DNA of 64,000 nucleotides from Callorhinchus milii (Eukaryota). Below are positions 1-49,770 of the stretch, in pieces; the stretch's first letter is position 1; the number at the start of each line of letters is the position of its first letter. The stretch covers positions 98,706,001 to 98,770,000 of the forward strand of contig NW_024704742.1 in NCBI RefSeq assembly GCF_018977255.1. The letters run 5' to 3'. The notes beneath the pieces are model-generated. The model had not been told where the DNA came from, searched no databases, and saw only the letters and a list, made by a program, of their open reading frames with translations. A program made the translations under genes and the position numbers.

Positions 1-74
1 ATTGATCACAATAAACATGAAATTAGGAAATGTCAATTTTAACAAAATGATAAAATAATGTTTCCAATTCTGGA

Positions 75-4330: not shown

Positions 4331-4577
4331 CATGGTTTGCCTTCAAATTTATAATCTGCTCAGATATTTGCTCAACAATATTTGGAGCCAGACAAAAGTG
4401 TTAAACTGGTAAAATCTGACACAGAAGCAACCGAAAGATTACACTTCTTCCTCACCACTCACACCTCTGCCAACACTTACGTTTCACAGCACTGACAGAA
4501 TTTCATTGAAGAAAGGGGGTTTGCAAATCAGTTTAGAGTCACCATGCAACACGTTGGAAACAAAAATCAAATGGAAA

Positions 4578-28500: not shown

Positions 28501-31500
28501 TAGCACTATTGCAGAGTCCTGTAGTGTAGTGGTTTGAACACTTGCCTCGCAAGCAAGAGTGCCTGGGTTTGATTCCCAGGCAGGGCAAAACATAAGGCAA
28601 GTTTCCTTACTCCACATGCCATTATTTACCAAACAAAAGTAGGAACCAGGTTGTTATTGATTGGCAGATCACTTTTCTAGGGGTAATAAAAAAATTAAAA
28701 ATAAATGTAAAAATATATTAATTTGGACATCAATCCACAATTGTTTGTGGACCACTGTTGTGCACAATTGGCTGCCATGTTTCACCCACAAATATACAGT
28801 CAATTCACTTTAGTGTGTTCTGTGAAGCGCTTTGGGACGTCCTCCCGACGTGAAAAGCGCTATATCAAATGCAAAGATTGTTATTATTATTATTCTGTGA
28901 AGCGCTTTGAGACATCTCAAAGACGTGATAAAGCGCTGTTCCAAATGCAAGGATTATTATTATTATCCTAAGAGTCTCTCACTGACATTTCCCATTATTC
29001 TGATGGTTTAATCTTCAAAGTGTTATGTCACCATGTCATTCAGGCTGAACAGGCAGAAGCTCAGAAGAGTTTTATGATGTCCCTCAGTCAAAAGACGCAT
29101 GTAACAGGAAATCCAGTGCTTGTGACCAAGGAGACAAATAGAGAAGAAGCCCAGGGCAGGCTGGAAAAGTTGAAAAGGAAACTGAGTAAAAAGGAAGAAG
29201 AAATTATTGCGCTTTTAAAGAATAAAAAGAAACTAGAAAATGGAGCTGAAGGATGGACAAAGCAACAAATTGTCCATGCTGACAACATGGTTTTGCTGAA
29301 GAAACTTTTAGAGAAGGTGAACATCTTAAAACTCTATAATTCAGCATCTTTAATGCTTGAGTGGAGATGTGTGCTCATTCGATTATTTTCACAGGACTAT
29401 CTGGGGAATATCAGAATGATGATTTATACATTGATATTTCATAGGTCGGATTTTTAATTCTCATTTCCTGGCTGCCACTTCCGTAAAAAATGAAAAATAA
29501 TAAAGTAGGTCAACCAGTAGGGAGATTTTTGTATGTAATATAATTTAGACAAACATTATTTGGGCGTAATTAATTAATCTAAGTCTTAATAAAGAATCTG
29601 AGTAGTGCAAATAGAGATTCCTGTGTTAGCCACTCCACCCCAACACAAGTGGAGTCCTGTAGCTCAGTGGTTAGAGCACTCGCTTTGCAATTCAATTCCA
29701 GGCAGGGTGAAACCTTAGGCAAGTTTCCTTACTCCACACGCCTAATAATAATCCCTCCAAAACCCAGAACAATAATAAATTGGCCATTTTCAATCTTCAG
29801 TCTGTGGGACATTGCTGTGCGCAATTGGCTGCCGTGTTCGCCCACAAATATACAGTCAATTCACTTTACAGTGTGTTCTGTGAAGCGCTTTGGGACATCC
29901 TCCCGACGTGAAAAGCGCTATATCAAGTGCAAGGATTTTAAAAAAATCTTATCCCTACAGGTAGATTGGAAATCTAACAGGAGTAATCCTTATTGAGGAA
30001 TGCCAATGAATGCCAATACTGCAAATTGGATCCATTTTACAAATTGTAGACATGAAATGGTCACCTTTCAAGATTTTTGAAATGCTGCTTCAATGAAAGG
30101 TGTTTGCACTGTATATCATTATAATTATATATGTTAAACATACAGGTCTTCTGAATGTAAAGTGAAGTGAACTACTTTATTTTGAACTAAGCAAGGAATT
30201 TATCAAGTACGTGGACTCTTAGATGAAAGGTAGCTGTATATTTCGTACATCAAGAGTAGATGGGCATATTGATGGCATCTCAGTTTGTGCCTGAGACATC
30301 TGCCAAAAAAATAGTATGTGAACTTATTCTTATTGGGAATTGCTGACACGTTGACTGATACAACAACGGGTACAATTTATACAATTCATTGGAATGCTCC
30401 AGTATCATGCTCCAAGTCTGGTTGGTTTTGTTCACGTTCACTCCCTAGACTGACTGACAGATGATGAACGGTCACTTGGACAAAGTATCCAATATATCAG
30501 CATGAGCCTTCAGAGAAAGAACCAAACGGGGAAATGAAAAATTGACTTTGTCTATTTTATTCCAGCTCCATTCTATGTACAGTGAGGTTCCAGAGGCACA
30601 GCAATTTGTTGACTATCTCTTAGAAGAAAGTCATGGGAAAGTGATGGCAGCCAAAGTAATTTTGAATGATGTGATAAACAGCGAAACAGAAACCAATGGG
30701 AAAACACCTACAAATTCTAGCAGGTACAAAATAACAATCTCTCAAAAGAAACAGTTTTTTTCCTTATTCTGTCTAGGGAATCTCTTATTACACATACAGC
30801 ATTAGGTAAAAGATCCAATTTATCTCCTTAATTTCTTGGCTCAATAGCTGGAAATACTGACATCTCCTGGCACTAATTAGAACTACAACAATGTCAGATG
30901 CCGTCAGCGCATAAGTCATTTGTATACACACCCACTTAACAGAGAGGATAACTTCAGTACTCTCAACATAATATATTAATATTTTATTATAATACCTAAA
31001 TACAATAATAATTATATTCAATATTAGGTATATGTTTTATATCTGCAATAAACATGTTAGTATTTAATGTATCTTATACCTAATATTGTATTCTCCTGTA
31101 AAGATTTCTTTACAGTCATTGAAATGCAGAATACAACAACAACAAAATTACATTTGTATAAAGTCTTTCACATTGGAAGGATGTTCCAAGGTGCTGGATA
31201 ATCAGTTGGGGTCGGGATTGGGCGGGGGGGAAGGAGAGTGATCGAAGGCACGTTTGAAGAGGAGGCTTGAGACTGTTCTCGAAGGAGGTAAGGGAGGGGG
31301 CGAGGTGGAGGAACTGCGGGATGGAGTTCAGAGGGTGGGGGCATAGTGGCTGAAAGCCCACCCGCCAATGGTGGGGCGGGCGAGGCTGGGGATGTGACCA
31401 GGCCGGAAACCACTAAGAGGAGGGAGCGGGCAGGTTGGTGGGGGTAAGGAAGTCACAGAGGTATGGGGAAGCGAGGCCATGGAGGGCTTTGAAGGTGAGG

Positions 31501-34500
31501 ACCAGGATCTTGAACAAATTCTTGAACAGTTCCTCTGTGTGATGGGAAGTCAGTGGAGTCGGGCGAGGATGGTGGTGATAGGATCACAGAGCCTGGTGAA
31601 GGAAAGGACACCGACTGCAGAGTTCTGGATGATCTGCAGCATATGGGGGGAGAAATTGGGGAGACTGGCAAGCAGGGAGTTTGCGTAGTCGAGCCTGGAT
31701 GTTATGAATACGTGTATGAGGGGCTTGGCGGCCTGCGGTGTGAGATAGTGGCGGAGCCGAGCAATATTGCGGAGGTGGGGAAAGGTGGAGCGAGTCATGG
31801 CACAGATGTGGGGTATGAAGAACAGTTGAGGGTCGAACAGAACACCGAGGATCCGTATTGGCTCCGTGAGATGTCGAGTGCATCCATGGAAGGAGATGTT
31901 GTCAGTTCCCAAATAGCATCCTTTAAAATGTTTATCACACAGTACAATACAATTGTATATAACACCTTTCATATTGGGTGTACATCCCAAACTGGATGGT
32001 AAATCCTAAGGTGCTTTTAGTTAAATAGAGAACTAATGTTTCATTTTTTTAGAAAGTTGGAAAGTTTGAGCTTCAAATTAGGATACAATTTGTACTTAAA
32101 CTAGCACCAAACACTTTCACAGAAGAGAATTCCTGTGCAAACTGTTTCCCATCAATCAAATTCCCCAGGTATTTTTGCAAGGCTATTCTAACAGCCCCAT
32201 TCCTGTCAATCACCATTCTTGCCAAAAAATTAATAATAATAGTAATAATTTGGTCACTCAATCCATGATTGTTTGTGGGACTGCTGGGCGCAATTGGGTG
32301 CCATTGTTTCGCCCACAAAATTTACAGTCAATTGACCTAAAGTATATTCTATGAAGCGCTTTGAGATGACTCGAAGACATGGTAAGGTGGTATATCAAAT
32401 GCAATAATAATTATTCTTATAATCTTTCACTTCGCTGCTGTCGGTACTTCAGTGACGGAATTGGCTGAACTGTTTTGCAGGGATCGGATTCCAGCGGATC
32501 TTTACAAAAGTCTGGAAGAGGCTAAGACAGATCTTTGGGAAGCAGAAAGAATTCTCAAGACTCTTGGCAACATTAGGTCTGGGTGTAACCGTCAGACACT
32601 TGGCATTGATCACCTACATCCTAGGAGCACAGGTCAGTCAGGGAGGTGCATTGAGATGCCACAATATGATAAAGCTTATTTCAAAGCCTTTATGCAAATT
32701 TTCTTTAAATAATTGTTTTTTAGTAATGCCTTCCCTCCTATTATTTACAGACTTTTAAAACCTAAGCATGGCATCACCTAATCACTTCTTACTTATCTCA
32801 TTTTCTTTGCTACTCTTTGATGGTGTCTGGTATTATGGGCCTTGGCCCCATACCTAGGACTTGCATTGTTTTTTGGAAATGTTCTCTATTATAATCCCCC
32901 CCATCCTCTTCAGCTCCTCACACCCAGCTTGTGTGCCTAGACAGCTGCGTAAAGTGCTTTGAAAAGTCCTTGTGTAGTGAAACTATTACTACTACTGCAC
33001 ATGATCGGTGTGGGTCACTGCACAACAACCGATCACGAACAGTGTCCCAGCGTCCTGAGGCTCAAGGCCTAAGTTGTTCCTGAATTGTCTCACTGGAGTA
33101 TATCATGGATGTCCACGATACCAGCTCCGGGTATAGTCTCAAGCCATGTTACGTCTGAACAGCAAGTCTGTGAGCCCAGTGCGCAGGTGACTATCTGTCC
33201 ATGTGACGGACATGTCTGAAGAGTAAATGAAGTCTCCATGTCATGTTGCTGTACACATCTGATAAACTGGCCTGAGATGACACTGCGTTGTCATAACATG
33301 ATTGTCAGTTGAACCAATGTATTCCAAGAATCCGGCACAGGCACTGTATGTGGAATGTTTGAAGCATGTCCGAGACTCTATTAAGCAGCGATCGTGTATC
33401 CGAGACGTATAGTCACACCGGCATCACGTCAACCCTGTAAATGCACAGCTTTGTAACCAGGGACAGGCTTTGCTGCCTCCAGACCCTATCTAGTGTGTAA
33501 AGTGCTATATAAATAAATGTATATTGTATTGTTCTCACAAGATCACAAATGAGACTCAGGTGAAGAAGTGTCCTTTAGCCCATTCAATCTCACTTTCCAG
33601 ATTACCAATCCTAAATTTCAAAATTCCATTTCACTTAGTCTTACTCTGTGAAACCATTTCACCTTCAAATTTCAGTTTGCACTGGAAAAATCTTAAATTC
33701 TGATCTTAATTTTAAAAACTTTGGACGACTGGCATCTAAATTAAGTTTGATTTGAAGAATTTTCTACAATGTTGCTCAATCTTACATTTCAATACAAGAA
33801 TAGCTAAGACTGAATGAATTTTCAGAACTTGACTGACTTCAATCATTGTAGTAGAAAAATAAATCTTAAATTTGTTTTAATTGATCTTAAAAGTTCCAAA
33901 TCCGCGTCCTCGCCTTCAAGGCTCTCAACGACTTTGCTCCTTCATATCTCTGTGACCTGCTAACCCCATATCAAGCTGCCCGCTCCCTCTACTCAGCAGG
34001 CTCCAGCTTCCTCCACATTCCCTGCCCGGCCCTCCCCACCATTGGCGGCCTAGCCTTCAGCCTCTCTGGCCCCACCCTTTGGAACTCCATCCCACAGTCC
34101 CTTCACCTTGCTCCCTCCCTCGCCTCTTTCAAGGTACATCTCAAGTCCCTCCCAACCCTGCCCTCCCTGCCCTCCACCCCTCCTGATCCCGACTCCCGCT
34201 CAGATCCACATCTCTGACTGTCCAGCACCTTGGGACATCCTCCCAACATGAAAGCCACAATACAAATGTCATTTGTTGTGCTAAAAGTAGCTGAAAATAC
34301 TTTTGTTTTATTATTCCTGTTAACTCAACAAGAACCCAGGAACCTCATTGTCGCTAAAAGATTTGAATCTGTCCTTATGACAGGTTTAAGCAAAACCCAG
34401 GAGGCAGAAATGAAGTTTAATCCGGGACGGGAGGAAATGATTCAATCCTTTATTGTTCCTACCAGCAACACAAATGGACAGGTTAGAAACTCCTATTGTG

Positions 34501-37500
34501 TATTTATCGTAATTGAATTACAGTTAATGGATTGCAACACAGAAAACTTTCATTTAATCAATGCTGGTAATAGCTCCTCCAATGGAGCTATAGAGACTTC
34601 TATGAATTTCTTGCACTTTTACCATTCCCTCTTACATTGCTTCTCTTGAAATGCTGCCTTTAAATATTTTTATGGACTTCAGTAGCAATTTGAATCAAAA
34701 CATTCAATTGCACTCTGCAGATCCATCTAGAGCTTTTAAAAATTGAGGGGTTTGTTCTGGGTGCAGCTTTAATGCACAACCTTCTGACCCAGAGATAGTT
34801 GTGCCACCATATGAGTCAAGCTGACATTATAAATAATCGAAGATTAAGAGGGGTCAGTCATAGATACATTCAGGTCAATCACTTTTTATACATAAAGTAG
34901 GAGGTGAGGTCCACAAATCAGTCAATTCATCAAGGACCTCCTCACCACACACACACACATCTGACAATATCTGACAGAGTCAGGATGTCACTGAGCATCT
35001 TTGCAATAATAATGAATCTAGAGATGAATGAGTGTTGTTTGTTTGTGTTTGTAAAAGGAAAATGAAACGTTACGTGATACTGAAAAGAAGAATGAAAGCA
35101 CAGTCCGTGTCTTGCAGCAAGAACTTGATGCCTTGAAGAAAGAACATAATGTAAGGACAGGAGCTGGAGGTGCAGTGTAACACTTGTCACATTGGACCAG
35201 TGATCAAATTGCGATTTGCTTCTTCTTTACTCCATCATTAGTCTTTCCCACTCTTCTGATATGTAACTGTCATAAGCACCATAATTCTAATGGGATTCTT
35301 TCCTGAGGTATCTTTCAGATAAACGTATCTAATGATGGGATTGGTGATGAGATAATGCAATTGAATCAGCAACACGTTAACAACTTCAGGCGGGATCAGA
35401 TACTCAAATCATCTGATGCATCCCATTTCCCACAAGTTTCCCTTCAATGTATCTGTCTCTGTTTACCTAGCAGTATGTAGGAACCCAGTTATTAGTCAAT
35501 TGGCGTTTTTTCCGTGGGTAATAATCCCTTCAAAATAAATGAAAAGTAAAATAATAATAATTTAGTCACTCAATCCACGACTGTTTGTGGGACACTGCTG
35601 TGTGCAATTGGCTGCGGCGTTTCGCCCATAAAATATACAGTCAATTCAATTTACAGTATATTCTGTGAGGTGCTTTGAAGTGTCTCAAAGACATGATAAG
35701 GCACTATATCAAATGTAAGGATTATTATTATAATACCCACCTTCCCGTCTTGGTGCAACCTAAATTATTGCTCTGGGTTTACTAAAATTCCCTGCAGGCG
35801 GCCCTTTTCTTTTATGAGGCATCTTTTACAGTACGGTTTTCCCAACAAGAACTTTTTCCACCTCAGAGAGATTAAGAGAGCTATCATTAAATCCCTCCAT
35901 GGTCTTGTTCCACCTGACTTCTGCAACCTTCTCAAACCTTACAAGCCCAACTGCTCTGTCCGCTGACGGGCACCAGCCTGCTTCACGTGCCCGGCCAAAG
36001 CGGTCCCACCCTGGAGGTCAGGCTTTCAGCCTACCTGTCCCCACTCTCTGAAACTCCATCCCAAGGTCCCTAAAAATTGCAGCTTCCCTCATCTCCAAGG
36101 TCCACCTCCAGATCTTTCTCTTTGATCTCTTGTTTAAATATATGTTTTAAAAAAATGTTTAGTTCAGCAGCACTTTGTGAAGAATTTTCTTTGAAATCAT
36201 AATTTCTCTTTTTCGCTGGAATTAGAGACTGAAGGAGGCGTTAACTAAAAGTGACCCAGAGCTCCAGAAGGTGAGATTAGCTTCACCAGCACAGAGAAGT
36301 GCTGCTGACAAACTCCTGGCATTGCAGACTGAGGTAGGTACATATATTCTCAGTTGCTCTGCGACAATGAATGAAACCACACTGAACAGTAATAATAATC
36401 CTTACGTTCAATATAGCATTTTTCTTGCCAAGAGGACATCTCAAAGTGCTTCACATGATTTACTGTAAAATGCATTTAAACGTATTTTATAGAATCATAG
36501 AATCTTACAGCATTGAAGGAGGCCATTCGGTGCATCATACCTGTGGCGAATCTTTTAAAGAGCTTCCAACTAGTTCTACTCCCAAATTCCTTCCCCATAG
36601 ACTTGCAATTTTTTTTCAAGTAAATATCCACTGTGTATTTTGTAGGTGAATAGTGATCAGTAATAATAATAGTCTTAGCATTTGACATAGAGATTTTCAC
36701 ATTGGAAGGACGACTCAAAACGCTTCACAAGATTTTACTGTGCATTATCCTTTGAATTCACAGTACACTACATCCAACGGATTACACAGTCACCTCCTTT
36801 GTTGCGGTTCCATCCTGATGTGATAAAGCAAGAGATTTTTGAAAATATTAACTGTGTGTGTCGGGAGGGGGAGGCTTTGAAATTGCATCATTCGCAATTG
36901 CATCTGCAGAAACTCCACTTTCAGCAATCTCCTTTTGAGCATGTTGGAGCTCACTTTCTGAGGGTTAGAGTAATTGAATTACAGGCAAGATTCAATATTT
37001 ATTATCTTTTTGCCTTAGTTTAATTCTCTCAAAGCATAGCAAGGAGAAGTATGACTGGAAATATCTTTGTGAAGTGGCTCAGTGTTTTATGCTACACGAA
37101 TGGTGTGGAGATTCCTCCTCAGATATACATTCCACTTGCACCTTGTGGTATCTTCCACTCCTCACACCCACTGTCCAAACTCTCTTCTGAGGACCAAGCA
37201 GTGAAGGGTGAAGGGCACTCTGGTCCTGCTCGTCTCTCTTCAAGGACAGCAAGTTACCAATGCAGATCAAGCTTGTGCTTATAAGACCTGCATTCAAACA
37301 GTCCTCCTTTGTTGATAAATTTATTGCCAATTGGCTACCGCATTTCACTCACAAAATACACTGTCGATTCAATGTACAGCAAATCCTGTGAAGCGCTTTG
37401 AGACATTTTGAAAACATAAGGCATTATATCAAATACAAGGATTATGCTTTATTATTATTGATGGATCTGAGCTGTCGGGGGTACAAATGAAAGCTTCCTC

Positions 37501-40500
37501 CAGCCCATTTGCAAAGTCCAGGATCAAGCAGTGGATTTGTGGCAAACACAGGAAGCATCTGCAGGGAGGGAGGGCTCCTGTTGCTAAGCACCCTGGAGGC
37601 AGAGGCGGCTTCACAGTGTGCATGTCTATTGCCAAAGCCCCTCGTATGAGGACCTGGATTAAGCAGGTGGTGCTGAGTAAGCCTGGTAAATGGGATTGGA
37701 CTTGGACCTTGAGAACATCAAGGTGGCTGGCATGTTGCAAGCTGTCCCGTTAAAGTGCCCCCACCAGGTTCAAGGCAGATGTGTGTCAGATAGCTGATGA
37801 GCAAACTCTGAAGCTTGTGGTGACAGCTGCTGGAAGGCGTTACCCAGATTCCAGGCAATGATGGCAATGCTCTCACGCAGTTCATGCTGAGCTGTGCTGC
37901 TCCTCAGGAAGCTCAAATGGAGTTCCTGTTATCTACCATCCACCTACTGAGGACTCAAACACATACTTGTTGGATGTTAAATGATCAATTAATGAGTAGC
38001 TCCCTGGGGGAGAGGTAAGCAGGTCTCCTTGGGGCTGAACTACCAATGGAATATCAGAATCGAGACAGCCCTCTGTGGATAATCCAGTTTCTGGGCTAAG
38101 TGGGTCCGCAGTACGCCAGGGCAATGCTGATGATAACCCAGTTAGCCTGCCTGATCAGCAGGATTGGGGAGGACAGACTAGTCACTCGAGCAAGGATACT
38201 TCCTATTAACCCTGTAAGCCAAAGCTGTAGCTGAACAAGCAGCGGGAATGCTTGCTAGACAGTGCTCTCAATGGTAAGCTATGCGGTTTTAGCTGGTTTG
38301 ACTCCAGCAGTATCCCAATGGACATTCTGGGGTCTCCAAGCCTTGGCTATTGCCAACCTGAGTCTAATAATCTCTGGAATAAGGTAAAAAGAATGCATTC
38401 TTCCAGCCAGTGAGTGTATATTCCATTCCAATAAATATCTCTGGAATTTCCATTAGGAAGGGTGAGATACATGGAACTCTCAATTTGTTTGTTATCCTCT
38501 TAAGCATTGGTTTCCACAATTGTCAGATACCCAGCTGACCGAAAAAGAAGCATGATGAATGTTTCAGCTCTCTGACTATGGAGTTTATGATATAAGTTGG
38601 ATCTAGTCACTGAGAAGCCGATGAGAAATCCATGAAGATATAATGATGATGATAATAATAACCTTTGCATGTGATATAGTGCCTTATCACATCTCCGAAA
38701 TCACCGGAAATACTGTAAAGTGATGTGAATGTGTGTATTTTGTGGGTGAATATACATATTTAAAGCAAGGTTGGATCAATATCACCATCATACAGTATCT
38801 CCTGTATCTCCAGGAGGAAACCAATATAAGGATAGCAACCCAAATTAGGTTTGAAAAGCACACAAGCACAGTATGTTTCCTACTCACAGTCTCTGAGAAA
38901 AGACATTTTAAAAATGTATCACAGAAGAAAAGCAATTTTAACACAGGAAAAAGACCTCAAACATGTCTTTTCCCTCCCCCGTCACTATCACTCCCCATCG
39001 CTATTAGTATATTAAATTAATCATCACACTTTAACTTGTTTTAAGTAAGTAAAACATATTTGAAGCGCTACCCCGTGTGAAGAGCATTATATAAATGCAA
39101 GTTGTTTTTGTTGAACTTTATTTTTTCCCTGAGAAGCTGAAGCAGCTGAAAATGGAAAACAAGAATCTGGTGGAGAACTTCAATTCAGAGAGGACACTGA
39201 GAAAAAAATATTACAATATGGTGGAGGAGTTGAAAGGTAGGAATCCACAGAGAATAGGATTTAAAGAAGGAATCCCATTCTGAGTTAGGAACGAAAAGTT
39301 TGTTAGCAATGGTGAACAACTTGTTTTAGACCCAGACAGGAAATATTGGGCATGTTTACTTTGAAGAACTGCAACCTCATTAAATCACAGAATCAAGAAA
39401 TTGCAGTATAGTATAGACATGAAGCCTAAGGTCTATTTGCAATGGCCTGCTCTTTGCCTTCCATACCGTTCCACTTAAAATATTTATTCAATTGCCTTTT
39501 AAATATTATTGTGTAGTTTAGTGTTTAGAGCACTTGCCTCGCAAGTAAAAGGACCTGGGTTCGATTCGCAGGCAGGGCAAAATGTTGGGCAAGTTTCTTT
39601 ACTCCATATGCCTCTGTTTACCTAGCAGTGAGTAGGAACCGGGTTGTTAGTCGATTGGTGGATTGCTTTTCCAGGAATAAGAGTCTCTTCAAAAATAAAT
39701 AAATAAATAATAATAATAATTTGGTCACTCAATCCATGACTGTTTGTGGGGCACTGCTGTGTGCAATTGACTGCTGCATTTCATCCACAAAATACAGTCA
39801 ATTCACTTTATATTATATTCTATGAAGAGCTTTGAGATGTCTCGAAGATGTGATAAGGCACTATATCGAATGCAAGGATTATTATTATTATCTTCATGTC
39901 GCGCCGGAAAGTCCTTTCTCTTCGACCATGTTTACGGTTCCTCCCCACTCCCACCAACTCGGTATCGCGCCCCACCATTGTCAAGCACTCTAGGATGCTA
40001 CCTGAGTGAAAGGCATTGTACAAGTGCATGTTGTTGTTGACAAAACATTCCACCTTCTAACAACCCCCGTACGTGAAAATGATCCTTCTAACCTCCCCTT
40101 TAATTCTTCTAGTGGACATGAATTCATGCCTCGTTGTTACCAATTTATCAATAGTCTTGAAATTTTCTCGAAACCTTCTCGAAATTTTTAAGAATTTGAA
40201 AACCATAATCAGATCCACACATTGCTAAGCAAATGCTTTAGAATCATGGAAATATAGAGAGCCCACTTTTCAAGTTTTCACTACCATTTTATGCAAATGT
40301 CACAAGGGAACATTTGCACAAAACACGTTTGCAATTAAGGAAAGGACAAAAACTGTGCTTAATTGTGCTGAAAATATTTCTCATTCTTTACTGTGCAGGA
40401 AAAATCCGTGTTTTCTGTCGAATACGACCTTTGAGTAAATCCGAGATAGCCCGGGGAAGCCAGTGTGTGGTCCACTCACCTGACGAATACACTGTGGCCA

Positions 40501-43500
40501 TTGAAGGTAATCGTGGTGTAAAGGCGTTGCAGTTTGATCAAGTTTTCAACAGCTCGGCATCACAAGAAGAAATCTTCAGTGATACAAGCAGGTACAGTGG
40601 GAGCAACACAGAGAACTAGACTTGCATTTGTATAAACCTGGTAATAGAAAGATGTGGGTTGAATGAGACAAACAGATTTCTGTAACATTCACCTGGAGTT
40701 TTTTCACTCCAAACTTTCTTAAAAGTTTTGTTGTAGCTATAAAACCACAAGCTTGTGGCCACATAGCAGTCTGTAGATAGAGTGATATAGTTAAGGATAT
40801 CCACTCAGGCAGTTCTGACTCTCTCCACAAGCTGCTTACTGTGTAGAGCTCTCACTGCTTTCTCATTTCTATTACTGCAATAGAGGACCTTTTTTAAAAA
40901 AAGCTCATCTCAGTTGTGAATGATGTGAATATTATTCAAGCTTGTTTGTGATTGTTACGTTTTTTTTTGCTGAGGATACTGTCAGAATGTTCAAAACCAC
41001 ATGGCAGAGGTAAGTTCCACATGGGTCTAGGTTTACTCTAAACTGTTTTCTATATTATTTTAAGAATGACAGAAAATTGCCATCAAAGTCATGACTGAAT
41101 TTGACAATTTTCTAAATTCTTGATGCTCTAAAATCCTAACATAAACAGAGTAAATCGTGACCCAGGTAAAAATGTTATCCCATACAACTACAGACCGCTC
41201 ATCTGGTTATGAAAAATATAAGCTGAAATGGATTTGTCAGGAAAATATTCATTGAAATGTATTGCCTTTTTAGCTGTCTAAATCGACAGCGTTTTTGATA
41301 TTGGTGAACTGAGCACTTCTGGGTCACTGCACATTATCTCATGTTCTGAAATTACATTTCCCGAGGATCACTTTTATCAAGCCGCAATCACAATGTGAAG
41401 GAAATAAAAGGATTTAAGGATACACTTCATTATTTGTAAACTATGCTCTTATTATTATTTGAAATGCTTCCTTCACTAATTGAAGTCATTATTACAAATA
41501 TGCAAATGCTACTCAGGAATCGTGCCATATGTTTGTCATGGTTCAGCATTGTTCTTTCGTTTACAGGGGGGCAGGGATTTTTTCTCACTCAGTTTCTGTT
41601 AAACCTGCAAGCGAAAGCCCTAAGAGGTAGGATGGTTCTAGCTGGATAAGCAGCAGGAAGCTTACCAGGCAGTGTTGGCATTTGAAAATTGCAAGTATCA
41701 GTTGGTTAAATTCCACAAGTAACTTTAATGCCCATGATGGGATCCCAAAGCTTTGGTTCTTGCCATCTCGTACATCCCTACCAACCTGCCCACTCCCTCC
41801 GCTCATCGGGCTCCGGCCTGCTCCATGTCTCCCGCCCGACCCGCCCTACCATCGGTGGTCGGGCTTTCAGCCTCTCTGCCCCCACACTCTGGAACTCCAT
41901 CCCACGGTCCCTTTGCCTCGCTTCCTCCCTTGCCTCCTTCAAGGCCGGTTTCAAGACCCTTCTCTTTGACCGTGCCTTTGGTCTCCCTCCCACCTCTCTG
42001 CCTTCCCTCACCCTTACACCACCCCTCCCCCATGCTCGGGTCGCGACATCTAACTGTTTAGCGCTTTGGGACATCCTCCCGACGTGAGAGGCGCTCTATA
42101 AATGTAATTTTGTTGTTGTTGTTGTAATACTTTCTCGGATTAGGTGAGCAAAGTGCATACCCCTGCGAAGAGAGTGTCCACTCCATTCTAGACCAACAGA
42201 AATGTCCTATGCATATGTGGAACTCTCAAGAATTTGAAGCATCATTGCACTCTGAAGTATCCCCCCAAATAATGAAACTAATATAGCACAATTGTGATCT
42301 TCCCACAGGCTAATACAATCAGCCATGGATGGTTACAATGTGTGCATCTTTGCATATGGTCAAACAGGCTCGGGAAAAACATTCACAATGATTGGAAGCA
42401 AGGAACAGCCCAACCATGGAATAACACCAAGAGCATTTAAAAGAGTATTTGAAATTATAGAAGAGAATCAAACAAAATTCACTTTTAAGGTAAGTTGATA
42501 AAACTATCAGTGGGTCACAATTTAAAATATTACTGTCCAATCTGCGTAATTATCATATGTAAAATGCCGCAAAAAATTCTGAACGTAAACATGTATTGAA
42601 AAATTGTGGTTTCTATCTGTTAGTGTGCAATATATTTCCCCTTCTCCCATTCTGTTTGACTGGAAATTGTTTTGGTTAGTAACTTGTTAAACAGTGATAG
42701 TTTGAACACCTCCTACAGTTTAATCAACTCAAAAGGGAGATCAGGTCTAGAGCATTCCATCTTGTCTGGAACAAGTATTTTGTTGTGAATTCGAGGCACT
42801 TTATCTAAGCATTTGATGACAATGCCCTTTGTTTTCTCTAGGTTTCAGTCTATATGTTGGAGCTATATAATGAACGGCTTTTGGATCTTTTTATAAATCC
42901 CAGTGAAGGTCCCACAGCAAAACTTGAAATAAAGAAAGACAGAAAGGGGTTTGTACATGTCCAGGGGGCAGAAATAATGGATGTCACTAGTGCTGAAATG
43001 CTCTGTGCATTATTTGAGCAATGCTCTGCGAATCGTCACACTGCAGCAACAAGTAAGATCTTCATCATAGAAACACTTCATTCATTATCAACCTGACTCA
43101 GTAGGTAGCACTCTCACCTCTGAGTCAGAAGGATTTTGAGTTCAAGCCTCATGTCGGGATTTTGAACTCAAATCGTCTTGGTTGTCACTCCAGTGCTGGG
43201 GGATGTTACACTGTTTTGTCAGATGAGACTTTAAACTCAGGTCACACCTACTTTTTCAAGTGGATGTTAAAGATCGTATTGTTCTACTTGAAAAGAGAAT
43301 GGAGTTTCTCCTGGTGCAGTGGCCAACAATCCCCCGGATAAAATTGGTCATTCACTTCATGGCTGTTTGTGGAACATTGCCGTGTGCAAATTGGCTATTG
43401 TGTTCACTTACAAAATACAGTCACTACATTTTACAGTAAAAGCCTTTAAAAGTGTTTTAAAATGCTCCCCCAGACGAGAAAGGCACTGCACTAAATGCAA

Positions 43501-46500
43501 GTAGAATTTGTATTATTATAAATTCCACCTATTTTTCGAAGTAATGAAACTAAATTGCACGTAATGCATTTGTGCCTTCCTAATGGCCTGCACGCTATGG
43601 ATAAAGCATTTTAAATATCTCCTGTTCTATGCTTGTTCTGTTTCATTACTCGTGTTGTTGGCATGTGTGCATCTCCAGTAAATTTGGTGTCCAGCCAGCA
43701 GAGTAAAGCTCTTTGAGGCGTCCTCCCAACGTAAAGGTACTATGTACAGGAATATGAAGATTCCACAGTGTGGTGCCTATTAATTGACAAAAGTGTTTTC
43801 TATTTGTGTGTGCCTGTTGCTAGCAGGTAACAGTCTAATTTTCTTCCCTACACCCCATCCACACGTGGATATATAAATGCTACAATTTTACATTAAAAAA
43901 AATGACTGCATTAAAAGTCGAAAACATAATGGTGGTCAGAAAGTTGGGAACCAGTGCTTAGGAAGGGAGTGCTACCACTAATGGCCATTTAGTGTATTAC
44001 ATTATATTTAGTGTGAATCTTCTGTTCAGTTCACACTAAACATCACAAAGCATTTATTTCCTCTACTGGATGTATCTTGAATATTCTGGAAGGCTGAAAT
44101 AAATTGGCTGAAATCAGAATTATGTATTAACATTTTTTTTAAAATAAATAAATAGTAATAATTTGGTCGTGTAACAATCCGTGATCGTTTGTGGGACACT
44201 GCTGTGCGCAATTGGTTGCCGCGTTTGGCTCACAAAGTATACATTCAATTCACTCCACTGTATATTCTGTGAAGAGCTTTGAGACATCTCGAAGACATGA
44301 TAAAGCGCTATATCAAATGCAAGAATTATTAGTATTATATCAATCTTCTGTGATCTTGATATTCATTCAGACAACAACAATTGAAGCTGCATGGTTCAGC
44401 AAGCACATAACATCAATTCATTCCTGTAAGACTGTCATCCTTTTTTTTTCAGAAATGAACACCGAAAGTTCCCGTTCTCACTTAATCATTGGCGTGATTA
44501 TTGAGAGCACAAATCTCACCAATGGATCTGTAACTCATGGGAAACTCAGCCTGGTTGATTTAGCAGGAAGTGAGAGAGCATCGAAAACAGGGGCGGAGGA
44601 TGGGCAACTGAAGGTCATTCTTATTTGCAGTTTAGTTCTTTGCAAATTGGTATTTGTCCTGTTTTGAAACACAGCGAATTCTCAGTTCTCACTCTGATCT
44701 GTAAAAAGGGGCAATTTTGTAAAATTACTGTATGGTTCAGTGCTAGTTAATGTGTTTCTTTCTGATTCTATGTGGCTTTATATGTAGCCACCCTGCAGGC
44801 TTTAAACCAGGCTATTTCTATCTAATAAAGTTCACAATCCTTGAATCCCAAATAGAACAGGATTTATTTAATGGTATGTGTATGTGGGTGGGTGTTGAGA
44901 CAGGAATGCATATTTATATTGTTTATATCTACTACCAGTTACTAATGTGACTTATTTTATGTACAGGGTGAATCTGAAGTCCTTACTCAGAGTTTTCAAT
45001 TATTAATCATATATTGTAAAAGACAACATTGGTAGAGAGTGTGCAACTAATCCAGGAGATGTCTTTCATCGCATTCGTGAAAGTTTTTGTGACTGAGTTG
45101 ATGTCTACATGGCATGCATTTTAACATCTAACATCTCATATTGATCTAGGAGTAAAGACTTTGGTTTCACAATGTACAAACAGTACTGCAGACGCAATGT
45201 GACATCTGCTGGAAAGTGGATTTACATTTGCTGCTCCAAATTGCAGGCGCGGGGAGCTGAGCAGAGCTTAGAAACTGTTGCAGTGATAAGAACAACCCAT
45301 CCACTGCTATTAGTAAAGAAAAATGTTACTCCATGAAATGGTTGCAACCTTATCCTCAAGTCATGTATGTTCATTCATAATATTCTTATAAATTATTTGG
45401 GGAGGACAAGTTTGCAGGGCTATGGGGAGAGAGCGAGGGAGTGGGATTGATTTGGATAGCTCTTTTCAAAGAGCCGGCACAGACACGATGAGCCGAATGG
45501 CCTCCTGTATAATTCTATGATTCTATGATTCATCTAACTCTGCTATTCTGGGAAGTGGGCACTTCTTCACCTCCACGATCCAAATCACTACAGTGTGGCT
45601 GGTGTGGAAAATGGAATATAATGCATTCAGTAAAAAGGTGCTCTTCCAAAGTTTGGACAGGGTACAAGGAGCTTTACTTTGCATCTCGTCATTGCTTTAA
45701 CAGACCTGGGATTGCTTGATTCCAACATTGATTGGCAATTCCCACCTTGCCTTTAATGATTGCAAAGGATGGATGTTACTATTGATTTTGTTTCAGTGGA
45801 ACTAAGGAAAAAAATGCAGGGTTCTTTGAGGAATATTTACCTGAATCCTTTTATCTTCGGAGAATCACAGGAAGCTAATTGCATCAACAAATCCCTGTGT
45901 TGCCTGGGCGACGTCATCTCAGCTCTGTCGGCGGAACAGTCCTTTATTCCTTACCGGAACAACAAGCTGACACTGCTGATGCAGGATTCCTTGGGTGGAA
46001 ATTCCAAAACGCTCATGTTCGTGAACATTTCCCCAGCAGATTACAATGCTGAGGAAAGCACCAGCTCACTGATGTAAGTTCCTAACTTAAAACTTGATTG
46101 CAAGATAACGTTTTACAAGAGGGTAAAAATTACAACCACTTTATCACAATGATTCAACCTGAAACTGCCTTGCATTAGACTGCTGGTTGGGAAAATATTG
46201 GTTATTTTATAATAAATATAAGATAAAAAAGTGTTCATGTCTTTAACAATATACACATATAATTTACAGCTATGCATCACGTGTTAAATCAATAACAAAT
46301 AATGCACAGAAAAATTCAGAGACTAAGGAGATAGCCCGACTCAAGCAGGTAATGGAGACCTTTTGTTTACTTTAGACAGTTTAGAAATAAAATTGATCAT
46401 TCACTTCATGACTGTTTGTGGGACATTTCTGTGCACAAATTGGCTACTGTGAATGGCACAAAATTCACAGTATATCATGTGGATTACTTTTGAGACAACC

Positions 46501-49302
46501 AGTTGATGTGAAAGGCACTACAATAAACCCCTGGCTTACCAGACTCCGAGTATCTAGAATTCGTACCTAGACGGGTCAGGACTGAAACTAAAATATTAAA
46601 AAAGCAATGTAGACTCCCAGCAGCCACTCTTAGCTTATTTGCTATGTTCTGCTCATGGGATTCAAACAATTACAATACAGATGCCAGCATTTACCAGAAT
46701 TTTTTGGCACTGAAAAAGCCAGAGTTGAAAAAAGTCGGTAAACGCCAGTACTGGCATTGTAATGATACTTAGCTGGAAACTCCAGTTTATCAGACTGATC
46801 TCCCGCCCACTATACCAGACAGCCAAGATTTTAGTGTATATCAAATACAAGGTTTTTTGAAAACTGTTCTCAAGAGACACAGGACAGAACATTCTCATTT
46901 TGTGCTTGTATTGAAGCTGAGGGTTTGAGGGTCAATCAGGACTGAGACAAACGGAGAACATGCTTAGACTGTAAGTCCTGTATCTTACAGTTCTGTAGCT
47001 CAGTGGTTAGAGCACTTGCCTTGCAAACGAGAGACCTGGGTTTGATTCCTGGCAGGGCAAAACCCTGGGCAAGTTTCCTTACTACACACACCTGATAATA
47101 ATCCCTCAAGAAAAAAACCCAATAATAAATTGGTCACTTCAATCCACGATTGTTTGTGGGACACTGCTGTCCACAATTTGCTGCCGTGTTTCACTCACAA
47201 ATATACAGTCAATTCACTTTATAATATATCCTGTGAAGCGCTTTGAGATGGCTAGAAGACATGAAAAGCACAATATCGAATGCAAGGATTATTATTTTTA
47301 TAACATTCATTCACATTTATGCCACTAGGTGGCATTTCTGACATAATAACTAATGTACTTGCATTTACTATGGCTCTTTACACAGTATGCTACTTTAACT
47401 GTTATGACTGTTGCTATGTGGGCAAACCTGTGCCCACAAACAACAAAGAAAAAAATGCCCAAATAATCTAGTTTTTTAAATGAATTTGGAAAAAGGTGTA
47501 ATATTTGCCAAGATACCCAAAATCATCCCTGCATAACTTCAGTGTCCACCAGAGTCACCAAAACAAGCAAAGGGGACATTAGTTTTAGTAGCAATTAGAA
47601 AAATGAAAATCTAATCTTATTAAAATAATCAAAGTTGTTTCCTTTCCCTTCTGAAAGTGTCACCTTTCGCTAATATTTGCATGATAACCTTCTAGTACAT
47701 CACGCAAATGACCATTCTTCATGTCTGAGCCTAGACATTCAGCATTGACAAGCTATTCAAATGTGGGAGACATCGCAGATGAGTCCCATCCTGTCCTCAT
47801 CCAATGCCTACACATCCGGATTTTCCAGGAGGAATCATCCACATTCACGGTTCTGTCATTGCCTGGTTTCATTCGTACCTATCCCAGTGTCTCCATTTCA
47901 TATCGGCCAATGGCTTCTCCTCACTCCCCGCAGCGTCCGTGCGGTATTCCTCAGTGTTTTATCTTTGGTCCTCTCCTCTTTCATATCTACAAGCTCGCTC
48001 TCGGCGATGTCATCCACAGGCATGAAGTTAAATTCCACATGTATGCAGATGACACCCAACTCTATGCCTCCACCCTCGATTCCAGGACCATTGCTATTCT
48101 GACTGATTACCCGTCAGACATCAAGTCCTAGATGAGAGCCAACTTTCAGCAAGACATGTCAAGAAGGTCAGGAAGGCAGAGGCTCTCCTGCTTGGCTTCC
48201 ATTACTGCCTTCTGCCTTCTCACCTCAGGTGCTGATAAAATCACCATCCATGGATGCACTCTACATCTCACTGAGCTAGTGCAGAACAATGGTGTTTTGT
48301 TCGATTCTCAATTGTCCTTACAACCCACATACATGCCTTAACCTACTCAGCTTTTCCCCATCTCTTAATTCGTACCAAAACTCCTGCTTCGTCAGCTCGG
48401 CAGACACTGGCCTGCTTCACGTTTCCCACTTTGCGCTCCCCATCATTGTGGTCGGGCCTTCAGCCTTTTTACTTCCACTCACTGGAACGCCATTCCAGAG
48501 TCCCTTCGCTTTGCCCATTCCTTTACTTACTTCAAAGTCCACCTCAAGATCTTCCTCTTTGACCATATCTTCAGTCATCTTTCTGCCCCCAATCCCTCCG
48601 GAAACCAATCTCCAAGTCGGGTGCAAACCCTCGACTGTCCAGCTCTTTGGGACCGCCTCTTGACATGAAAGGCATTATATAAGTGCAATCTGTTGTTGTT
48701 GGATAGTAATCAGATGAAGAAATCTTGGATGATTTGTTTGTTTTACAGTAACACACTGTATATTGAGTTTAGATGATAGTATGGACAATGAAATAGATTA
48801 GCATACAGGATAAATAGAGATGAAGATCTACATGTAAGAAATTAATAGTAATATTGTCTCTTAGGCCCAATTGAATGTTTAATAATATTAATGCTGCATT
48901 GGATGTAGCATTTTATAATGTAGATGCAAAGTCTCAAGGCATTTCACAGGATTTACTGTAAAGTGCTGGGAATGTGTATGTGTAGGCAAATATCTTGAGG
49001 TATTACCTGAGAAGAATGGGTGTTTGGTAAAATACAGTCATAAGGAAATCAGCAACAAACAAACCTCTTCTGCATTATTCACCAGATGGCTAGCAAACAT
49101 CTGTTTATTATTGGCTTGACATTGCAGGTCTCAAATTCACAACCACAAAGCTTGCCGATCTGTCTAACTGAACAATTGTGTGTTTTGAAGTTTTATTTTT
49201 TACAGGTGTGGACTTCATTCATGTTTTCTTTTGCAGATTATTTTGAAACTTAAATCTGGAGAACCAGTAGAGGAGATAACAGGACTGCTGCCCCAATTTT
49301 GA
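4578..49302 (+). CDS. Kinesin-14 gene of the KCBP (kinesin-like calmodulin-binding protein) / kinesin-C type: coiled-coil stalk, C-terminal motor, putative calmodulin-binding tail; about 33 exons, with the 5' exons apparently degenerate
   Basis: Motor motifs [20 protein letters not shown] (P-loop), NTESSRSH (switch I), LVDLAGSE (switch II) and [24 protein letters not shown]. The neck [17 protein letters not shown] and the post-motor [39 protein letters not shown] follow the KCBP layout. GT-AG exons are phase-consistent from 13256 to TGA 49300-49302. The first in-frame ATG after the lesions is at 15565. Confidence 0.85.
5550..6452 (+). mobile_element. Two tandem Deu-domain SINEs (SacSINE1/AmnSINE1-like)
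   Basis: GTGCTGCATTGTC-GGATGAGAC-TTAAACC-GATGTTAAA-CCATGG Deu-domain blocks with a tRNA-like head and L2-type tail. Confidence 0.7.
7121..7499 (-). mobile_element. tRNA-derived SINE, long variant
   Basis: GGAGTCCTGTA head and TATCAAATGCAAGGATTATTATT tail on the - strand. Confidence 0.85.
8938..9930 (-). mobile_element. L2 LINE 3' fragments, degenerate, with a DeuSINE piece inside
   Basis: Similar to the L2 ends at 19432 and 31134; RT-region remnants at 9600-9900. Confidence 0.65.
11993..12130. mobile_element. Penelope-like element terminal fragment with inverted partial copy
   Basis: ACTCAGCAGGTCAGGCAGCATCT...GACCCTTCATCAGAACTG motif, which I recall as typical of chondrichthyan Penelope-like repeats. 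Confidence 0.55.
12300..12680 (-). mobile_element. Deu-domain SINE, degenerate
   Basis: Reverse-complement Deu blocks (GTCTCATCC, GGGACTTGAAC). Confidence 0.6.
13256..13361 (+). CDS. Kinesin gene exon segment ([35 protein letters not shown])
   Basis: Open frame after TAG 13253-13255; phase-1 donor G|gtgaat matches the next exon. May now be untranslated. Confidence 0.5.
13914..14021 (+). CDS. Kinesin gene exon, 108 nt, phase 1-1
   Basis: ctacag| (D)[35 protein letters not shown] |gtaaga. Confidence 0.55.
14775..15250 (-). mobile_element. CR1 LINE 3' fragment with a short L2/SINE tail inserted at ~15010-15078
   Basis: ORF 15050-15307 reads [20 protein letters not shown]...[10 protein letters not shown]. 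Confidence 0.85.
15476..15670 (+). CDS. Kinesin gene exon, 195 nt, phase 1-1
   Basis: tttatttgcag| [10 protein letters not shown]...DIDDMS |gtcaga; lies within ORF 15454-15726. Confidence 0.6.
16347..16466 (+). CDS. Kinesin gene exon, 120 nt, phase 1-1
   Basis: ttttatcttag| [39 protein letters not shown] |gtatgt. Confidence 0.65.
16560..16925 (-). mobile_element. CR1 LINE 3' fragment
   Basis: Reverse complement gives [17 protein letters not shown] and [13 protein letters not shown] motifs. Confidence 0.75.
17842..17957 (+). CDS. Kinesin gene exon
   Basis: ccaaag| [11 protein letters not shown]...[14 protein letters not shown] |gtaact; phase 1-0. Confidence 0.65.
19200..19396 (+). mobile_element. 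Ty3/Gypsy integrase core relic
   Basis: [10 protein letters not shown]...[14 protein letters not shown] resembles the integrase motif PxxxxSDNG...TSSPxYPQSNG. Confidence 0.7.
19428..20064 (-). mobile_element. Young L2 LINE 3' end
   Basis: [11 protein letters not shown]...[12 protein letters not shown]...[13 protein letters not shown] with a (TTG)n tail. Confidence 0.9.
20070..20407 (-). mobile_element. tRNA-derived SINE, long variant; its tail is split by the L2 insertion (remainder at 19401-19427)
   Basis: Head GGAGTCCTGTAG at 20407; body matches the other copies. Confidence 0.85.
21186..21618 (+). mobile_element. Young L2 LINE 3' end
   Basis: Near-identical to the reverse complement of 19428-19900; (TTG)n tail. 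Confidence 0.9.
22272..22364 (+). CDS. Kinesin gene exon (start of coiled coil)
   Basis: ttttcccag| [31 protein letters not shown] |gtactc. Confidence 0.75.
22803..23103 (+). mobile_element. tRNA-derived SINE, short variant
   Basis: B-box GGTTCAATTCC, family body and (TTA)n tail. Confidence 0.85.
23151..23318 (+). repeat. Tandem duplication, 2 x 84 bp, 1 mismatch
   Basis: 23151-23234 versus 23235-23318. Confidence 0.95.
23389..23523 (+). CDS. Kinesin gene exon (coiled coil)
   Basis: actttag| [30 protein letters not shown]...WEEMIE |gtaaga. Confidence 0.8.
24405..24497 (+). CDS. Kinesin gene exon (coiled coil), 93 nt, phase 0-0
   Basis: ttatag| [31 protein letters not shown] |gtaaaa. Confidence 0.75.
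24640..24834. mobile_element. hAT/Charlie-like MITE
   Basis: Terminal inverted repeats CAGAGTGTTCCAAC...GTTGGACCACCCTG; ATCTAA on both flanks. Confidence 0.6.
25113..25650 (-). repeat. Unclassified interspersed repeat, copy 2
   Basis: Reverse complement aligns by eye to 37980-38546. Confidence 0.7.
25909..25960 (+). CDS. Kinesin gene exon
   Basis: ttttacag| [18 protein letters not shown]|gtaagt; phase 0-1. Confidence 0.75.
26934..27133 (+). CDS. Kinesin gene exon
   Basis: ccctag| (A)[18 protein letters not shown]...QEESTK |gtaaat; phase 1-0. Confidence 0.75.
28231..28276 (+). CDS. Probable small kinesin gene exon
   Basis: cttcag| [16 protein letters not shown]|gtgagt; phase 0-1 fits the acceptor at 29020. 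Confidence 0.5.
28513..28967 (+). mobile_element. tRNA-derived SINE, long variant with duplicated tail
   Basis: Two successive TTCTGTGAAGCGCTTTG...CAAATGCAA.GATT tails. Confidence 0.85.
29021..29316 (+). CDS. Kinesin gene exon (coiled coil); alternative acceptor at 29043
   Basis: ...[26 protein letters not shown]...LLKKLLEK |gtgaac. Confidence 0.75.
29650..29938 (+). mobile_element. Young tRNA-derived SINE
   Basis: Near-identical to 49771-50092 apart from a head deletion. Confidence 0.9.
30566..30723 (+). CDS. Kinesin gene exon
   Basis: ttattccag| [22 protein letters not shown]...TNSS AG|gtacaa; phase 0-2. Confidence 0.75.
31134..31905 (-). mobile_element. L2 LINE 3' fragment
   Basis: [10 protein letters not shown]...HLRNIARLR...[17 protein letters not shown]. 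Confidence 0.9.
32481..32632 (+). CDS. Kinesin gene exon
   Basis: ttttgcag| [26 protein letters not shown]...PRST G|gtcagt; phase 2-1. Confidence 0.7.
32984..33490 (-). mobile_element. RTE-clade LINE 3' fragment inserted in an L2-type tail
   Basis: The - strand reads [28 protein letters not shown]...[14 protein letters not shown], like RTE TKLRIY..VLLYGSETW..FH.RCLRRILGI.W; (AGT)n tail. Confidence 0.8.
33895..34280 (+). mobile_element. L2 LINE 3' end
   Basis: GCCTTCAGCCTCTC...TGGAACTCCATCCC block and tail stem-loop. Confidence 0.85.
34384..34481 (+). CDS. Kinesin gene exon
   Basis: atgacag| (G)[20 protein letters not shown]...NGQ |gttaga; phase 1-0. Confidence 0.6.
35058..35150 (+). CDS. 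Kinesin gene exon (coiled coil)
   Basis: gtaaaag| [31 protein letters not shown] |gtaagg. Confidence 0.7.
35455..35731 (+). mobile_element. 5'-truncated SINE, long variant
   Basis: Body and tail match 39512-39890. Confidence 0.8.
36226..36333 (+). CDS. Kinesin gene exon
   Basis: aattag| [36 protein letters not shown] |gtaggt. Confidence 0.7.
37470..38546 (+). repeat. Unclassified interspersed repeat, longest copy
   Basis: 3' half shared with three other copies; GC-richer 5' extension. Confidence 0.65.
39134..39236 (+). CDS. Kinesin-14 neck exon
   Basis: (K)[34 protein letters not shown]|gtagga; tandem GAG/AAG acceptor, so the exon starts at 39134 or 39137. Confidence 0.9.
39512..39891 (+). 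mobile_element. tRNA-derived SINE, long variant
   Basis: A/B boxes, central TGTTTACCTAGCAG block, tail. Confidence 0.85.
40399..40591 (+). CDS. Kinesin motor exon (beta1)
   Basis: gtgcag| [16 protein letters not shown]...[21 protein letters not shown]|gtacag. Confidence 0.95.
41770..42125 (+). mobile_element. L2 3' end nested in unclassified repeat copy 4 (41570-41765 plus 42126-42230)
   Basis: L2 block with (TTG)n tail; the host repeat resumes at TAATACTTTCTCGGATTAGG. Confidence 0.85.
42309..42489 (+). CDS. Kinesin motor exon (P-loop)
   Basis: ccacag| [29 protein letters not shown]...GITPRAF...FTFK |gtaagt; not in the ORF track. Confidence 0.95.
42842..43052 (+). CDS. Kinesin motor exon
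   Basis: ctctag| [17 protein letters not shown]...[16 protein letters not shown]...NRHTAAT A|gtaaga. Confidence 0.95.
43095..43505 (+). mobile_element. Deu-domain SINE, near full length
   Basis: tRNA-like head, Deu blocks, L2-type tail. Confidence 0.75.
44453..44613 (+). CDS. Kinesin motor exon (switch I/II)
   Basis: ttttcag| [12 protein letters not shown]...[25 protein letters not shown] |gtcatt. Confidence 0.95.
44964..45174. mobile_element. Tc1/mariner-type MITE
   Basis: TA|CAGGGTGAATCTGAAGTCCTTACTC ... GAGTAAAGACTTTGGTTTCACAATG|TA; imperfect TIRs with a TA target duplication. Confidence 0.6.
45871..46073 (+). CDS. Kinesin motor exon (alpha4-beta8)
   Basis: tcacag| [19 protein letters not shown]...[30 protein letters not shown]...SSL AT|gtaagt. 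Confidence 0.95.
46270..46348 (+). CDS. Kinesin alpha6, neck mimic and start of the CaM-binding-like helix
   Basis: ttacag| [26 protein letters not shown] |gtaatg. Confidence 0.9.
46993..47297 (+). mobile_element. tRNA-derived SINE, short variant
   Basis: TAGCTCAGTGG A-box, family body and tail. Confidence 0.9.
47730..48700 (+). mobile_element. L2 LINE fragment including the RT active-site region
   Basis: [13 protein letters not shown]...[11 protein letters not shown], with internal deletions and a 3' tail. Confidence 0.85.
49237..49302 (+). CDS. Kinesin terminal coding exon
   Basis: ttttgcag| [21 protein letters not shown] completes the basic amphipathic helix followed by an acidic patch. 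Confidence 0.8.
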   Translation: MILKLKSGEPVEEITGLLPQF

Positions 49303-49770
49303 ATGAACTGTAAGCAACATTGCTAATCCTAGCAAACACTAAGTAATTCATCCTTACATCGGATATAGTATCTTTTGTGTCAGGAGGATACAATACAATG
49401 CATTACAAATTTATATTTATATAGCGTCTTTCATGTCCGGAGGACATTCCAAGGTGCTTGACAGTCTTGGCTTGGCATCCGAGCTGAAGGTGGAAGTTGA
49501 AGGATGTGGGGAAAAATGACCGAAGGCATGGTTGAAAAGGAGGGTCTAAACACAGACCTTGAAATAGGTGAAGTAGGGGATGAATCAGATGGACTCCAGG
49601 AAAGAGTTCTAAATAGAGGAGGCAGATAGGCTGAAAGCCCAATGGTGGGGCGAGTAGATGGAGGATGAAGCAGGTTAATGCTCGCTGAGGATATCTCAAG
49701 GAGATTCACAGGATATGTTGCAAAGTTTCGTGACTGTATATTCTAGGCGAATGTAGCAATCAATTTACAT

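Follow-up and report, generated by a model that had tools for sequence, protein, structure and literature searches.

A kinesin-14 gene of the KCBP and kinesin-C lineage with a calmodulin-binding-like tail in Callorhinchus milii

Calcium-switched kinesins have been described mainly from plants and the sea urchin. In plant KCBP, the regulatory domain consists of a neck mimic, a helix bound by Ca2+/calmodulin or by KIC, and a negatively charged coil, and binding of Ca2+/calmodulin or KIC detaches the motor from microtubules (described in PMC3689661). The same source reports that the helix also mediates self-dimerisation and that the long acidic coil is needed for dimers of the KCBP tail (PMC3689661). 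Sea-urchin kinesin-C was identified as calmodulin-binding in the title of Rogers 1999, as it stands in the reference list of a 2000 paper (PMC2175202); passages of that paper propose kinesin-C as a Ca2+-released brake on spindle poles, and state that its function had not been tested (PMC2175202). According to an excerpt of a 2015 paper, a calmodulin-binding tail occurs, besides KCBP, only in sea-urchin kinesin-C (PMC4574192).

The main text of Wickstead 2010 carries no mention of KCBP. No study of a vertebrate member was found in the open-access literature, and the gene name si:dkey-96l17.6 returned 0 open-access papers, though gene lists in supplements may carry it. We know of no mammalian kinesin-14 that has such a tail. 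Some non-plant members, such as that of Ciona, were reportedly listed already by Abdel-Ghany in 2005. Here, we describe a gene of this type in a 64,000-nucleotide stretch of Callorhinchus milii DNA (contig NW_024704742.1, positions 98,706,001 to 98,770,000), referred to as the window; all coordinates below are positions within it.

Gene model and neighbouring genes

A sequence-only reading of the window had placed a kinesin-14 at 39134..49302 from four groups of protein motifs. All four were located on the plus strand at the claimed places: the neck motif at 39197, crossing a splice; the loop motif at 42920; the beta-strand and switch II stretch at 44479 and 44539; and the tail motif at 46298-46348 and 49237-49275, split by a splice. 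The last eight exons (39137-49302, plus strand) form one open frame across their AG acceptors and GT donors, free of internal stops, and give neck, motor and tail. The first acceptor of the interval is more likely to be 39137 than 39134, since the former uses an AAG rather than a GAG acceptor and orthologs align from that codon. The interval proved to be the 3′ part of a longer gene rather than the whole of it, holding the last eight of at least 23 exons, with the rest at 13914-36333.

The upstream exons were found by tblastn with five database orthologs, combined with a splice-site scan and phase. The resulting 23-exon model starts at 13914 and has 1075 open codons, one terminal stop and GT-AG borders at 22 of 22 introns. 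Single exons matched shark proteins at E about 1e-25, so the coding match is not due to chance. The gene extends upstream to at least 13914, and the true start codon lies further 5′. At 11194-11273, a polypyrimidine acceptor, two ATGs and a strong donor were observed, and one frame has the phase to join the exon at 13914; this segment is a candidate first coding exon.

All modelled exons lie on the plus strand. Exon 1 (13914..14021), the most upstream coding exon of the model, is bounded by AG/GT and fits the phase of the next exon, and teleost orthologs align from model residue 2. Exon 2 (15476..15670), a low-complexity head region, is in frame and was matched by the sturgeon protein P0010 (tblastn, E 0.002); a same-phase alternative donor lies at 15676. 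Candidate exon 3 (16347..16466) was placed by splice-site scan and phase only, without tblastn support. A conserved unnamed N-terminal domain starts in exon 4 (17842..17957; tblastn with P0010 and P0014) with a Tyr-Ile-Pro motif, where the invertebrate and protist profile matches also begin. Between exons 4 and 5, a candidate exon at 18353-18432 was rejected, as both usable frames contain stops. The domain continues through exon 5 (22272..22364), which is helical and supported by tblastn, frame and profile matches, exon 6 (23401..23523; domain or coiled coil; tblastn with sawfish P0007, E 4e-8) and the coiled coil of exon 7 (24405..24497; tblastn E 1e-4), and ends in exon 8 (25909..25960; splice sites, tblastn and frame).

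Exon 9 (26934..27133; tblastn E 2e-10) encodes coiled coil and then an acidic linker. The stalk follows, with coiled coil in exon 10 (29044..29316; tblastn E 4e-13), then exon 11 (30566..30723; tblastn E 1e-10), exon 12 (32481..32632; tblastn E 3e-8 up to 32586) and exon 13 (34333..34481; weak tblastn, in frame). The junction 32632/34333 between exons 12 and 13 is uncertain on both sides, and an alternative donor lies after 32582. Candidate exon 14 (35058..35150), a coiled coil, was placed by open frame and phase only, with no meaningful ortholog match, and exon 15 (36226..36333; splice sites, tblastn and frame) encodes the stalk before the neck coiled coil.

Many introns carry dense copies of a tRNA-like SINE family (e.g. 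28510-28900, 29640-29940, 39510-39890, 47000-47290 and 49770-50080). This family reached very high summed depth in all four sequencing runs (of 12; three presumed to be RNA and one other) that were mapped to 29600-49599. The mapping was swamped by these repeats and was uninformative on expression; the same applies to the lack of an exon-exon joint among the 15 joints listed (3833 further). At 49276-49302, exon 23 adds a few residues after the position at which the compared animal orthologs terminate, and a contig from another sequencing run that covers this region showed no difference there.

The neighbours had been named as ANXA1 and CYP1D1. A cytochrome P450 gene was indeed found on the minus strand, convergent with the kinesin gene, with three exons at 54896-59722 by Pfam scores and a likely fourth at 56945-56811; we take this to be the gene labelled CYP1D1. 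ANXA1 was not borne out, with no annexin-like coding exon found in 1-4400. At 4310-4045 on the minus strand, a TATA-like box precedes a short exon that looks non-coding; a strong donor sits near 4218 and another donor near 4045. A divergent neighbour, ANXA1 for example, could begin with this exon.

Motor domain and regulatory tail

The motor core spans model residues 712-1034 of 1075, and a crude heptad scan gave coiled coil up to the neck. The protein has the kinesin-14 architecture, with a C-terminal motor after coiled coils, and orthologs score with PF16796 and PF00225. The P-loop, switch I and switch II are intact at model residues 793, 909 and 942. Over the 323-residue core, identity was 82% to three sharks, 67% to teleosts, 68.7% to Strongylocentrotus purpuratus kinesin-C (P0118), 65% to Ciona and 54.3% to pecan KCBP.

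In a PDB search by exon, KCBP came first for six of the seven window exons searched, ahead of KIFC1 and KIFC3. Exon 16 (39137..39236), encoding the dimerising neck coiled coil and the kinesin-14 neck, is 70-75% identical to shark and ray proteins and matched no kinesin in the PDB; its sole match, a PadR protein at E 0.16, was rejected as chance. The motor starts in exon 17 (40399..40591), for which potato KCBP was top with 38.3 bits, only 0.3 bit over kinesin-1 at 38.0. The separation was wider for exon 18 (42309..42489), which holds the P-loop (KCBP 70 bits vs KIFC1 55.5 and KIFC3 54.7), and for exon 21 (45871..46073), which encodes helices 4-6 and the microtubule-binding face (KCBP 84.1 and 81.8 bits vs KIFC3 67.6 and KIFC1 66.9). 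Exon 19 (42842..43052), the loop 8 region with a KCBP-type loop, is 73-77% identical to sharks and matched KCBP with 40.1 and 37.7 bits, with no KIFC chain in 22 matches. KCBP also supplied the top two matches of exon 20 (44453..44613), which carries switch I and switch II. When the teleost ortholog P0013 was searched against the PDB, KCBP scored 374.7 and 372.7 bits and KIFC3 261.8, the KIFC3 alignment ending before the tail; KIFC1 lay outside the best 60 of 136 matches.

A tree was built from 47 rows, the window protein and 46 database rows hand-picked from 293 proteins. Two Chara models (P0016 and P0017) at the top of a C-terminal search owed their scores to repeated motor fragments and were left out. 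The window protein was sister to three sharks (support 100/97), a position that points to a cartilaginous fish and possibly a chimaera. This group is nested in a clade of 12 vertebrates (99/95), itself part of a clade of 31 holozoan rows with kinesin-C and Monosiga among them (96/94). Green-plant KCBP was sister to the holozoan clade with weak support (93/75). The vertebrate part of the tree follows species order, and the window branch is short (0.14 vs a median of 0.22). A motor phylogeny with KCBP, kinesin-C, the KIFC proteins and KIF25 had been proposed as a check on the family call. The grouping with kinesin-C was obtained; exclusion of the KIFC group comes from the scores and not from the tree, since the tree has no KIFC1, KIFC3 or KIF25 rows and its outgroups are long branches from other families.

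By sequence, the motor appears to resemble KCBP and kinesin-C more closely than KIFC1, KIFC3, Ncd or Kar3, in agreement with the original family call, which scores and grouping of motor and tail both upheld. On these grounds, the gene is orthologous to sea-urchin kinesin-C and zebrafish si:dkey-96l17.6 and represents an ancient kinesin-14 in the KCBP lineage.

The tail follows in the order neck mimic, amphipathic basic helix and short acidic end. Exon 22 (46270..46348) encodes the end of helix 6, the neck mimic and the first half of the regulatory helix, and matched two KCBP sequences only in the PDB at E up to 10. The second half of the helix, the short acidic coil and the stop lie in exon 23 (49237..49302; tblastn 81% to basking shark P0002). 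Over 39 tail residues, identities numbered 36 to basking shark, 31 to Hydra, 27 to kinesin-C and 17 to pecan KCBP, and the 17-residue helix was identical to that of kinesin-C at 13 of 17 positions. The helix has a net charge of +2, and its hydrophobic moment of 0.29 falls between the extremes of eight homologs (0.22-0.40). At the position of the Trp of plant KCBP it carries Leu, and the acidic coil is far shorter than in the plant protein. The tail was reached by 95 of 102 fish proteins, and the whole helix pattern was kept in 85 of these 95; in the remaining 10, the sequence diverges or stops beyond the exon 22 boundary, a pattern that mis-predicted last exons would produce. In the AlphaFold model of P0013, an ortholog and not the window protein (pLDDT 90), a helix follows the core at 342-355, and in a Foldseek search with this model the top 7 matches were all KCBP chains.

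Conservation of the helix has a second possible cause, since the KCBP helix also self-dimerises. The gene could be a kinesin-C ortholog whose vertebrate tail helix serves self-dimerisation, core docking or another EF-hand partner, as KIC in plants, with calmodulin not the physiological switch. We regard this as unlikely, though it is the alternative that survives best. A helix after a neck-linker-like segment is also typical of plus-end kinesin necks, which we counted in its favour, together with the double use of the KCBP helix as dimer interface and as binding site for KIC besides calmodulin. Most teleosts have Gln/His and Glu at two helix positions, lowering the net charge to +1, and the plant Trp is absent. 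However, kinesin-C also has no Trp, yet was identified as calmodulin-binding, and its helix is the one largely shared with the window protein. Moreover, the tail exon matches KCBP alone in the PDB, and the long coil required for KCBP tail dimers is short here. Prediction of a complex between calmodulin, the basking-shark tail and four Ca2+ scored 0.02 in both runs, made without alignments and by a method uncalibrated for peptides; the calmodulin came from a metagenome and matches a PDB calmodulin chain at all of 149 residues. A calmodulin-responsive tail of the kinesin-C type is the reading preferred here.

Orthologs and the N-terminal domain

A search of longer proteins with one motor exon gave 15 matches among 25 candidates: seven sharks and rays, three sturgeon entries, bowfin and four teleosts, named mostly si:dkey-96l17.6, LOC110439812 homolog or KIN-14I. 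A second, length-filtered search used the C-terminal 137 residues of a teleost ortholog. The best 120 of its 7139 matches comprised 89 named fish proteins, one unnamed fish-like protein, the two Chara models and 28 others, which were mostly invertebrates with some stramenopiles and unnamed entries, and included Ciona, amphioxus, cnidarians, molluscs and oomycetes. An S. purpuratus protein annotated as calmodulin-binding carboxy-terminal kinesin was also among the best 120. No tetrapod, lungfish, coelacanth or cyclostome was found among the best 120 of 7139, and gar and bichir were likewise absent. Because these are the best 120 of a length-filtered search in which gar and bichir are also missing, the absence of tetrapods is only a hint of loss.

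The gene had been described as retained in this lineage. It is present, but it is not lineage-specific, with orthologs in sharks, a ray, sturgeons, bowfin and teleosts. [quoted passage not shown]

Many shark database models are truncated at one end, and four of the seven elasmobranch proteins are without the last motor exons. In two of the seven, from Hemiscyllium (P0004) and Pristis (P0007), Gln stands in place of the switch I Arg and the P-loop is altered. Given these changes and the missing exons, relaxed selection in some sharks and rays is possible, as is independent decay in some elasmobranchs such as those two, judged from the protein models. The window copy has none of these signs. In 10 of 102 fish proteins, His replaces Gln just before the P-loop core.

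These elasmobranch proteins, the few extra residues of the window tail and the lack of a tetrapod among the best 120 of 7139 matches would also fit a gene that is decaying or dispensable in cartilaginous fishes, with the tail a relic. This is quite improbable: the window copy has a frame open over 1075 codons, canonical splice sites, intact catalytic motifs and a short branch, while switch II is kept in 102 of 102 fish proteins.

The N-terminal exons had been said to lack MyTH4 and FERM domains. This held: 14 of 15 upstream exons and four fish orthologs were negative for both, a 17-codon exon being too short to scan, and a pecan KCBP control was positive for both. The protein is thus not a KCBP in the strict plant sense, which takes an N-terminal MyTH4-FERM tandem. 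Yet the region is not featureless, as it holds the conserved unnamed domain. An alignment with kinesin-C (E 2e-14) covers model residues about 165-320. A profile of 70 vertebrate rows matched 51 of 191 non-fish proteins at E<0.001, a set that includes near-duplicates and fragments, and 0 of 191 when reversed. All but one of the matches (50/51) start within the first eight profile positions, at the Tyr-Ile-Pro motif. Named carriers include cnidarians, molluscs, tunicates, Rhodelphis, Phytophthora and Aphanomyces, to which a broader 89-row profile added Goniomonas, Spironema, Willaertia and Pinguiococcus; most of the named carriers are, we presume, flagellated lineages.

The profile had no match in pecan KCBP, three other green-clade rows, crayfish or tick. 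The arthropod members (crayfish P0137 and tick P0147) keep motor and tail, and the reduced orthonectid Intoshia (P0138) keeps a weak match to the domain. No family for the domain was found in Pfam. An ESM Atlas search likewise gave no family, only leads under 0.9 and with TM under 0.5 by query, and among 153 candidates in a weak search for short remnants of the domain without a motor, none reached E<=0.01. We infer that N-terminal domain, motor and tail may form the old architecture, with MyTH4-FERM a green-lineage replacement, the root of the tree being insecure for this order.

A KIFC1-, KIFC3- or KIF25-type paralog with a convergent tail, or a lateral gain from an alga or protist, is highly improbable in a comparison that covered KIFC1 and KIFC3 by scores: the bit-score gaps to these two proteins, the N-terminal domain in common with kinesin-C and the species order among vertebrates all weigh against it.

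Proposed mechanism and comparison with known systems

The overall explanation we favour, with a probability of roughly 0.7, is that this gene codes for a kinesin-C ortholog acting as a Ca2+-off minus-end motor, its switching and motility being modelled on KCBP and homologs. As in plant KCBP, the stalk would dimerise the motor. The dimer would move slowly toward microtubule minus ends, and may slide or bundle microtubules or drag cargo held by the N-terminal domain. On a rise in Ca2+, Ca2+/calmodulin would clamp the tail helix; the neck mimic could then no longer dock, and the motor would release the microtubule. Minus-end motility is suggested by the architecture and by KCBP as described in PMC3689661, and Ca2+-dependent calmodulin binding that releases the motor from microtubules is suggested by tail homology.

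The cellular role is a matter of speculation. A role at the basal body, in the cilium or in sperm has close to an even chance; in Chlamydomonas, KCBP accumulates at basal bodies and in ciliary fractions (review PMC2213603; also PMC4947347). A role in the spindle or early cleavage, in line with the proposal for kinesin-C, is on the unlikely side, and other transport is a little less likely still.

A broader account, doubtful as a whole, would join these points. Fishes would have retained an additional kinesin-14 that the catalogue based on mammals does not contain and that represents an ancestral eukaryotic Ca2+/calmodulin-switched motor, with an N-terminal cargo domain in common with oomycetes, Rhodelphis, a cryptist, a hemimastigote and a heterolobosean. 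Green plants would later have swapped this domain for MyTH4-FERM, making KCBP the derived form, and the protein, a retrograde motor turned off by Ca2+, would act at basal bodies, cilia or sperm and have been lost toward mammals. The shared domain does suggest an ancestral cargo module that preceded the gain of MyTH4-FERM in plants. Cartilaginous and ray-finned fishes, among them medaka and carp relatives of zebrafish, carry this motor type in intact form. This places a microtubule motor, probably switchable directly by Ca2+, in genetically tractable vertebrates, where the function of kinesin-C could be tested by knockout, and its function in animals in zebrafish.

Among known systems, kinesin-C (P0118) is alike in core (68.7%), tail (27/39) and unnamed N-terminal domain, in its place in the holozoan clade, and in having no MyTH4-FERM. 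It differs in length, with 1610 residues against about 1075 modelled in the window, where the stalk is shorter, and in its acidic end, which carries a charge of -5 against -2 in the window protein, the latter then having a few extra residues. The zebrafish si:dkey-96l17.6 and LOC110439812 homologs are direct orthologs with the same N-terminal region and tail; many shark models are incomplete, whereas the window gives a near-complete one. Plant KCBP, or ZWICHEL (PDB 1SDM, 3H4S and 4FRZ; pecan P0160), provides the nearest solved structures and has the same order of neck mimic, regulatory helix and acidic coil (PMC3689661). Its core is 54% identical to that of the window protein, and the helix Trp and long negative coil occur in plants only. 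KCBP has MyTH4-FERM, which the window protein does not, whereas the N-terminal domain of the window protein was not found in KCBP. Human KIFC3 and KIFC1 (PDB 5WDE and 5WDH) are likewise kinesin-14 proteins with a C-terminal head, but scored much lower.
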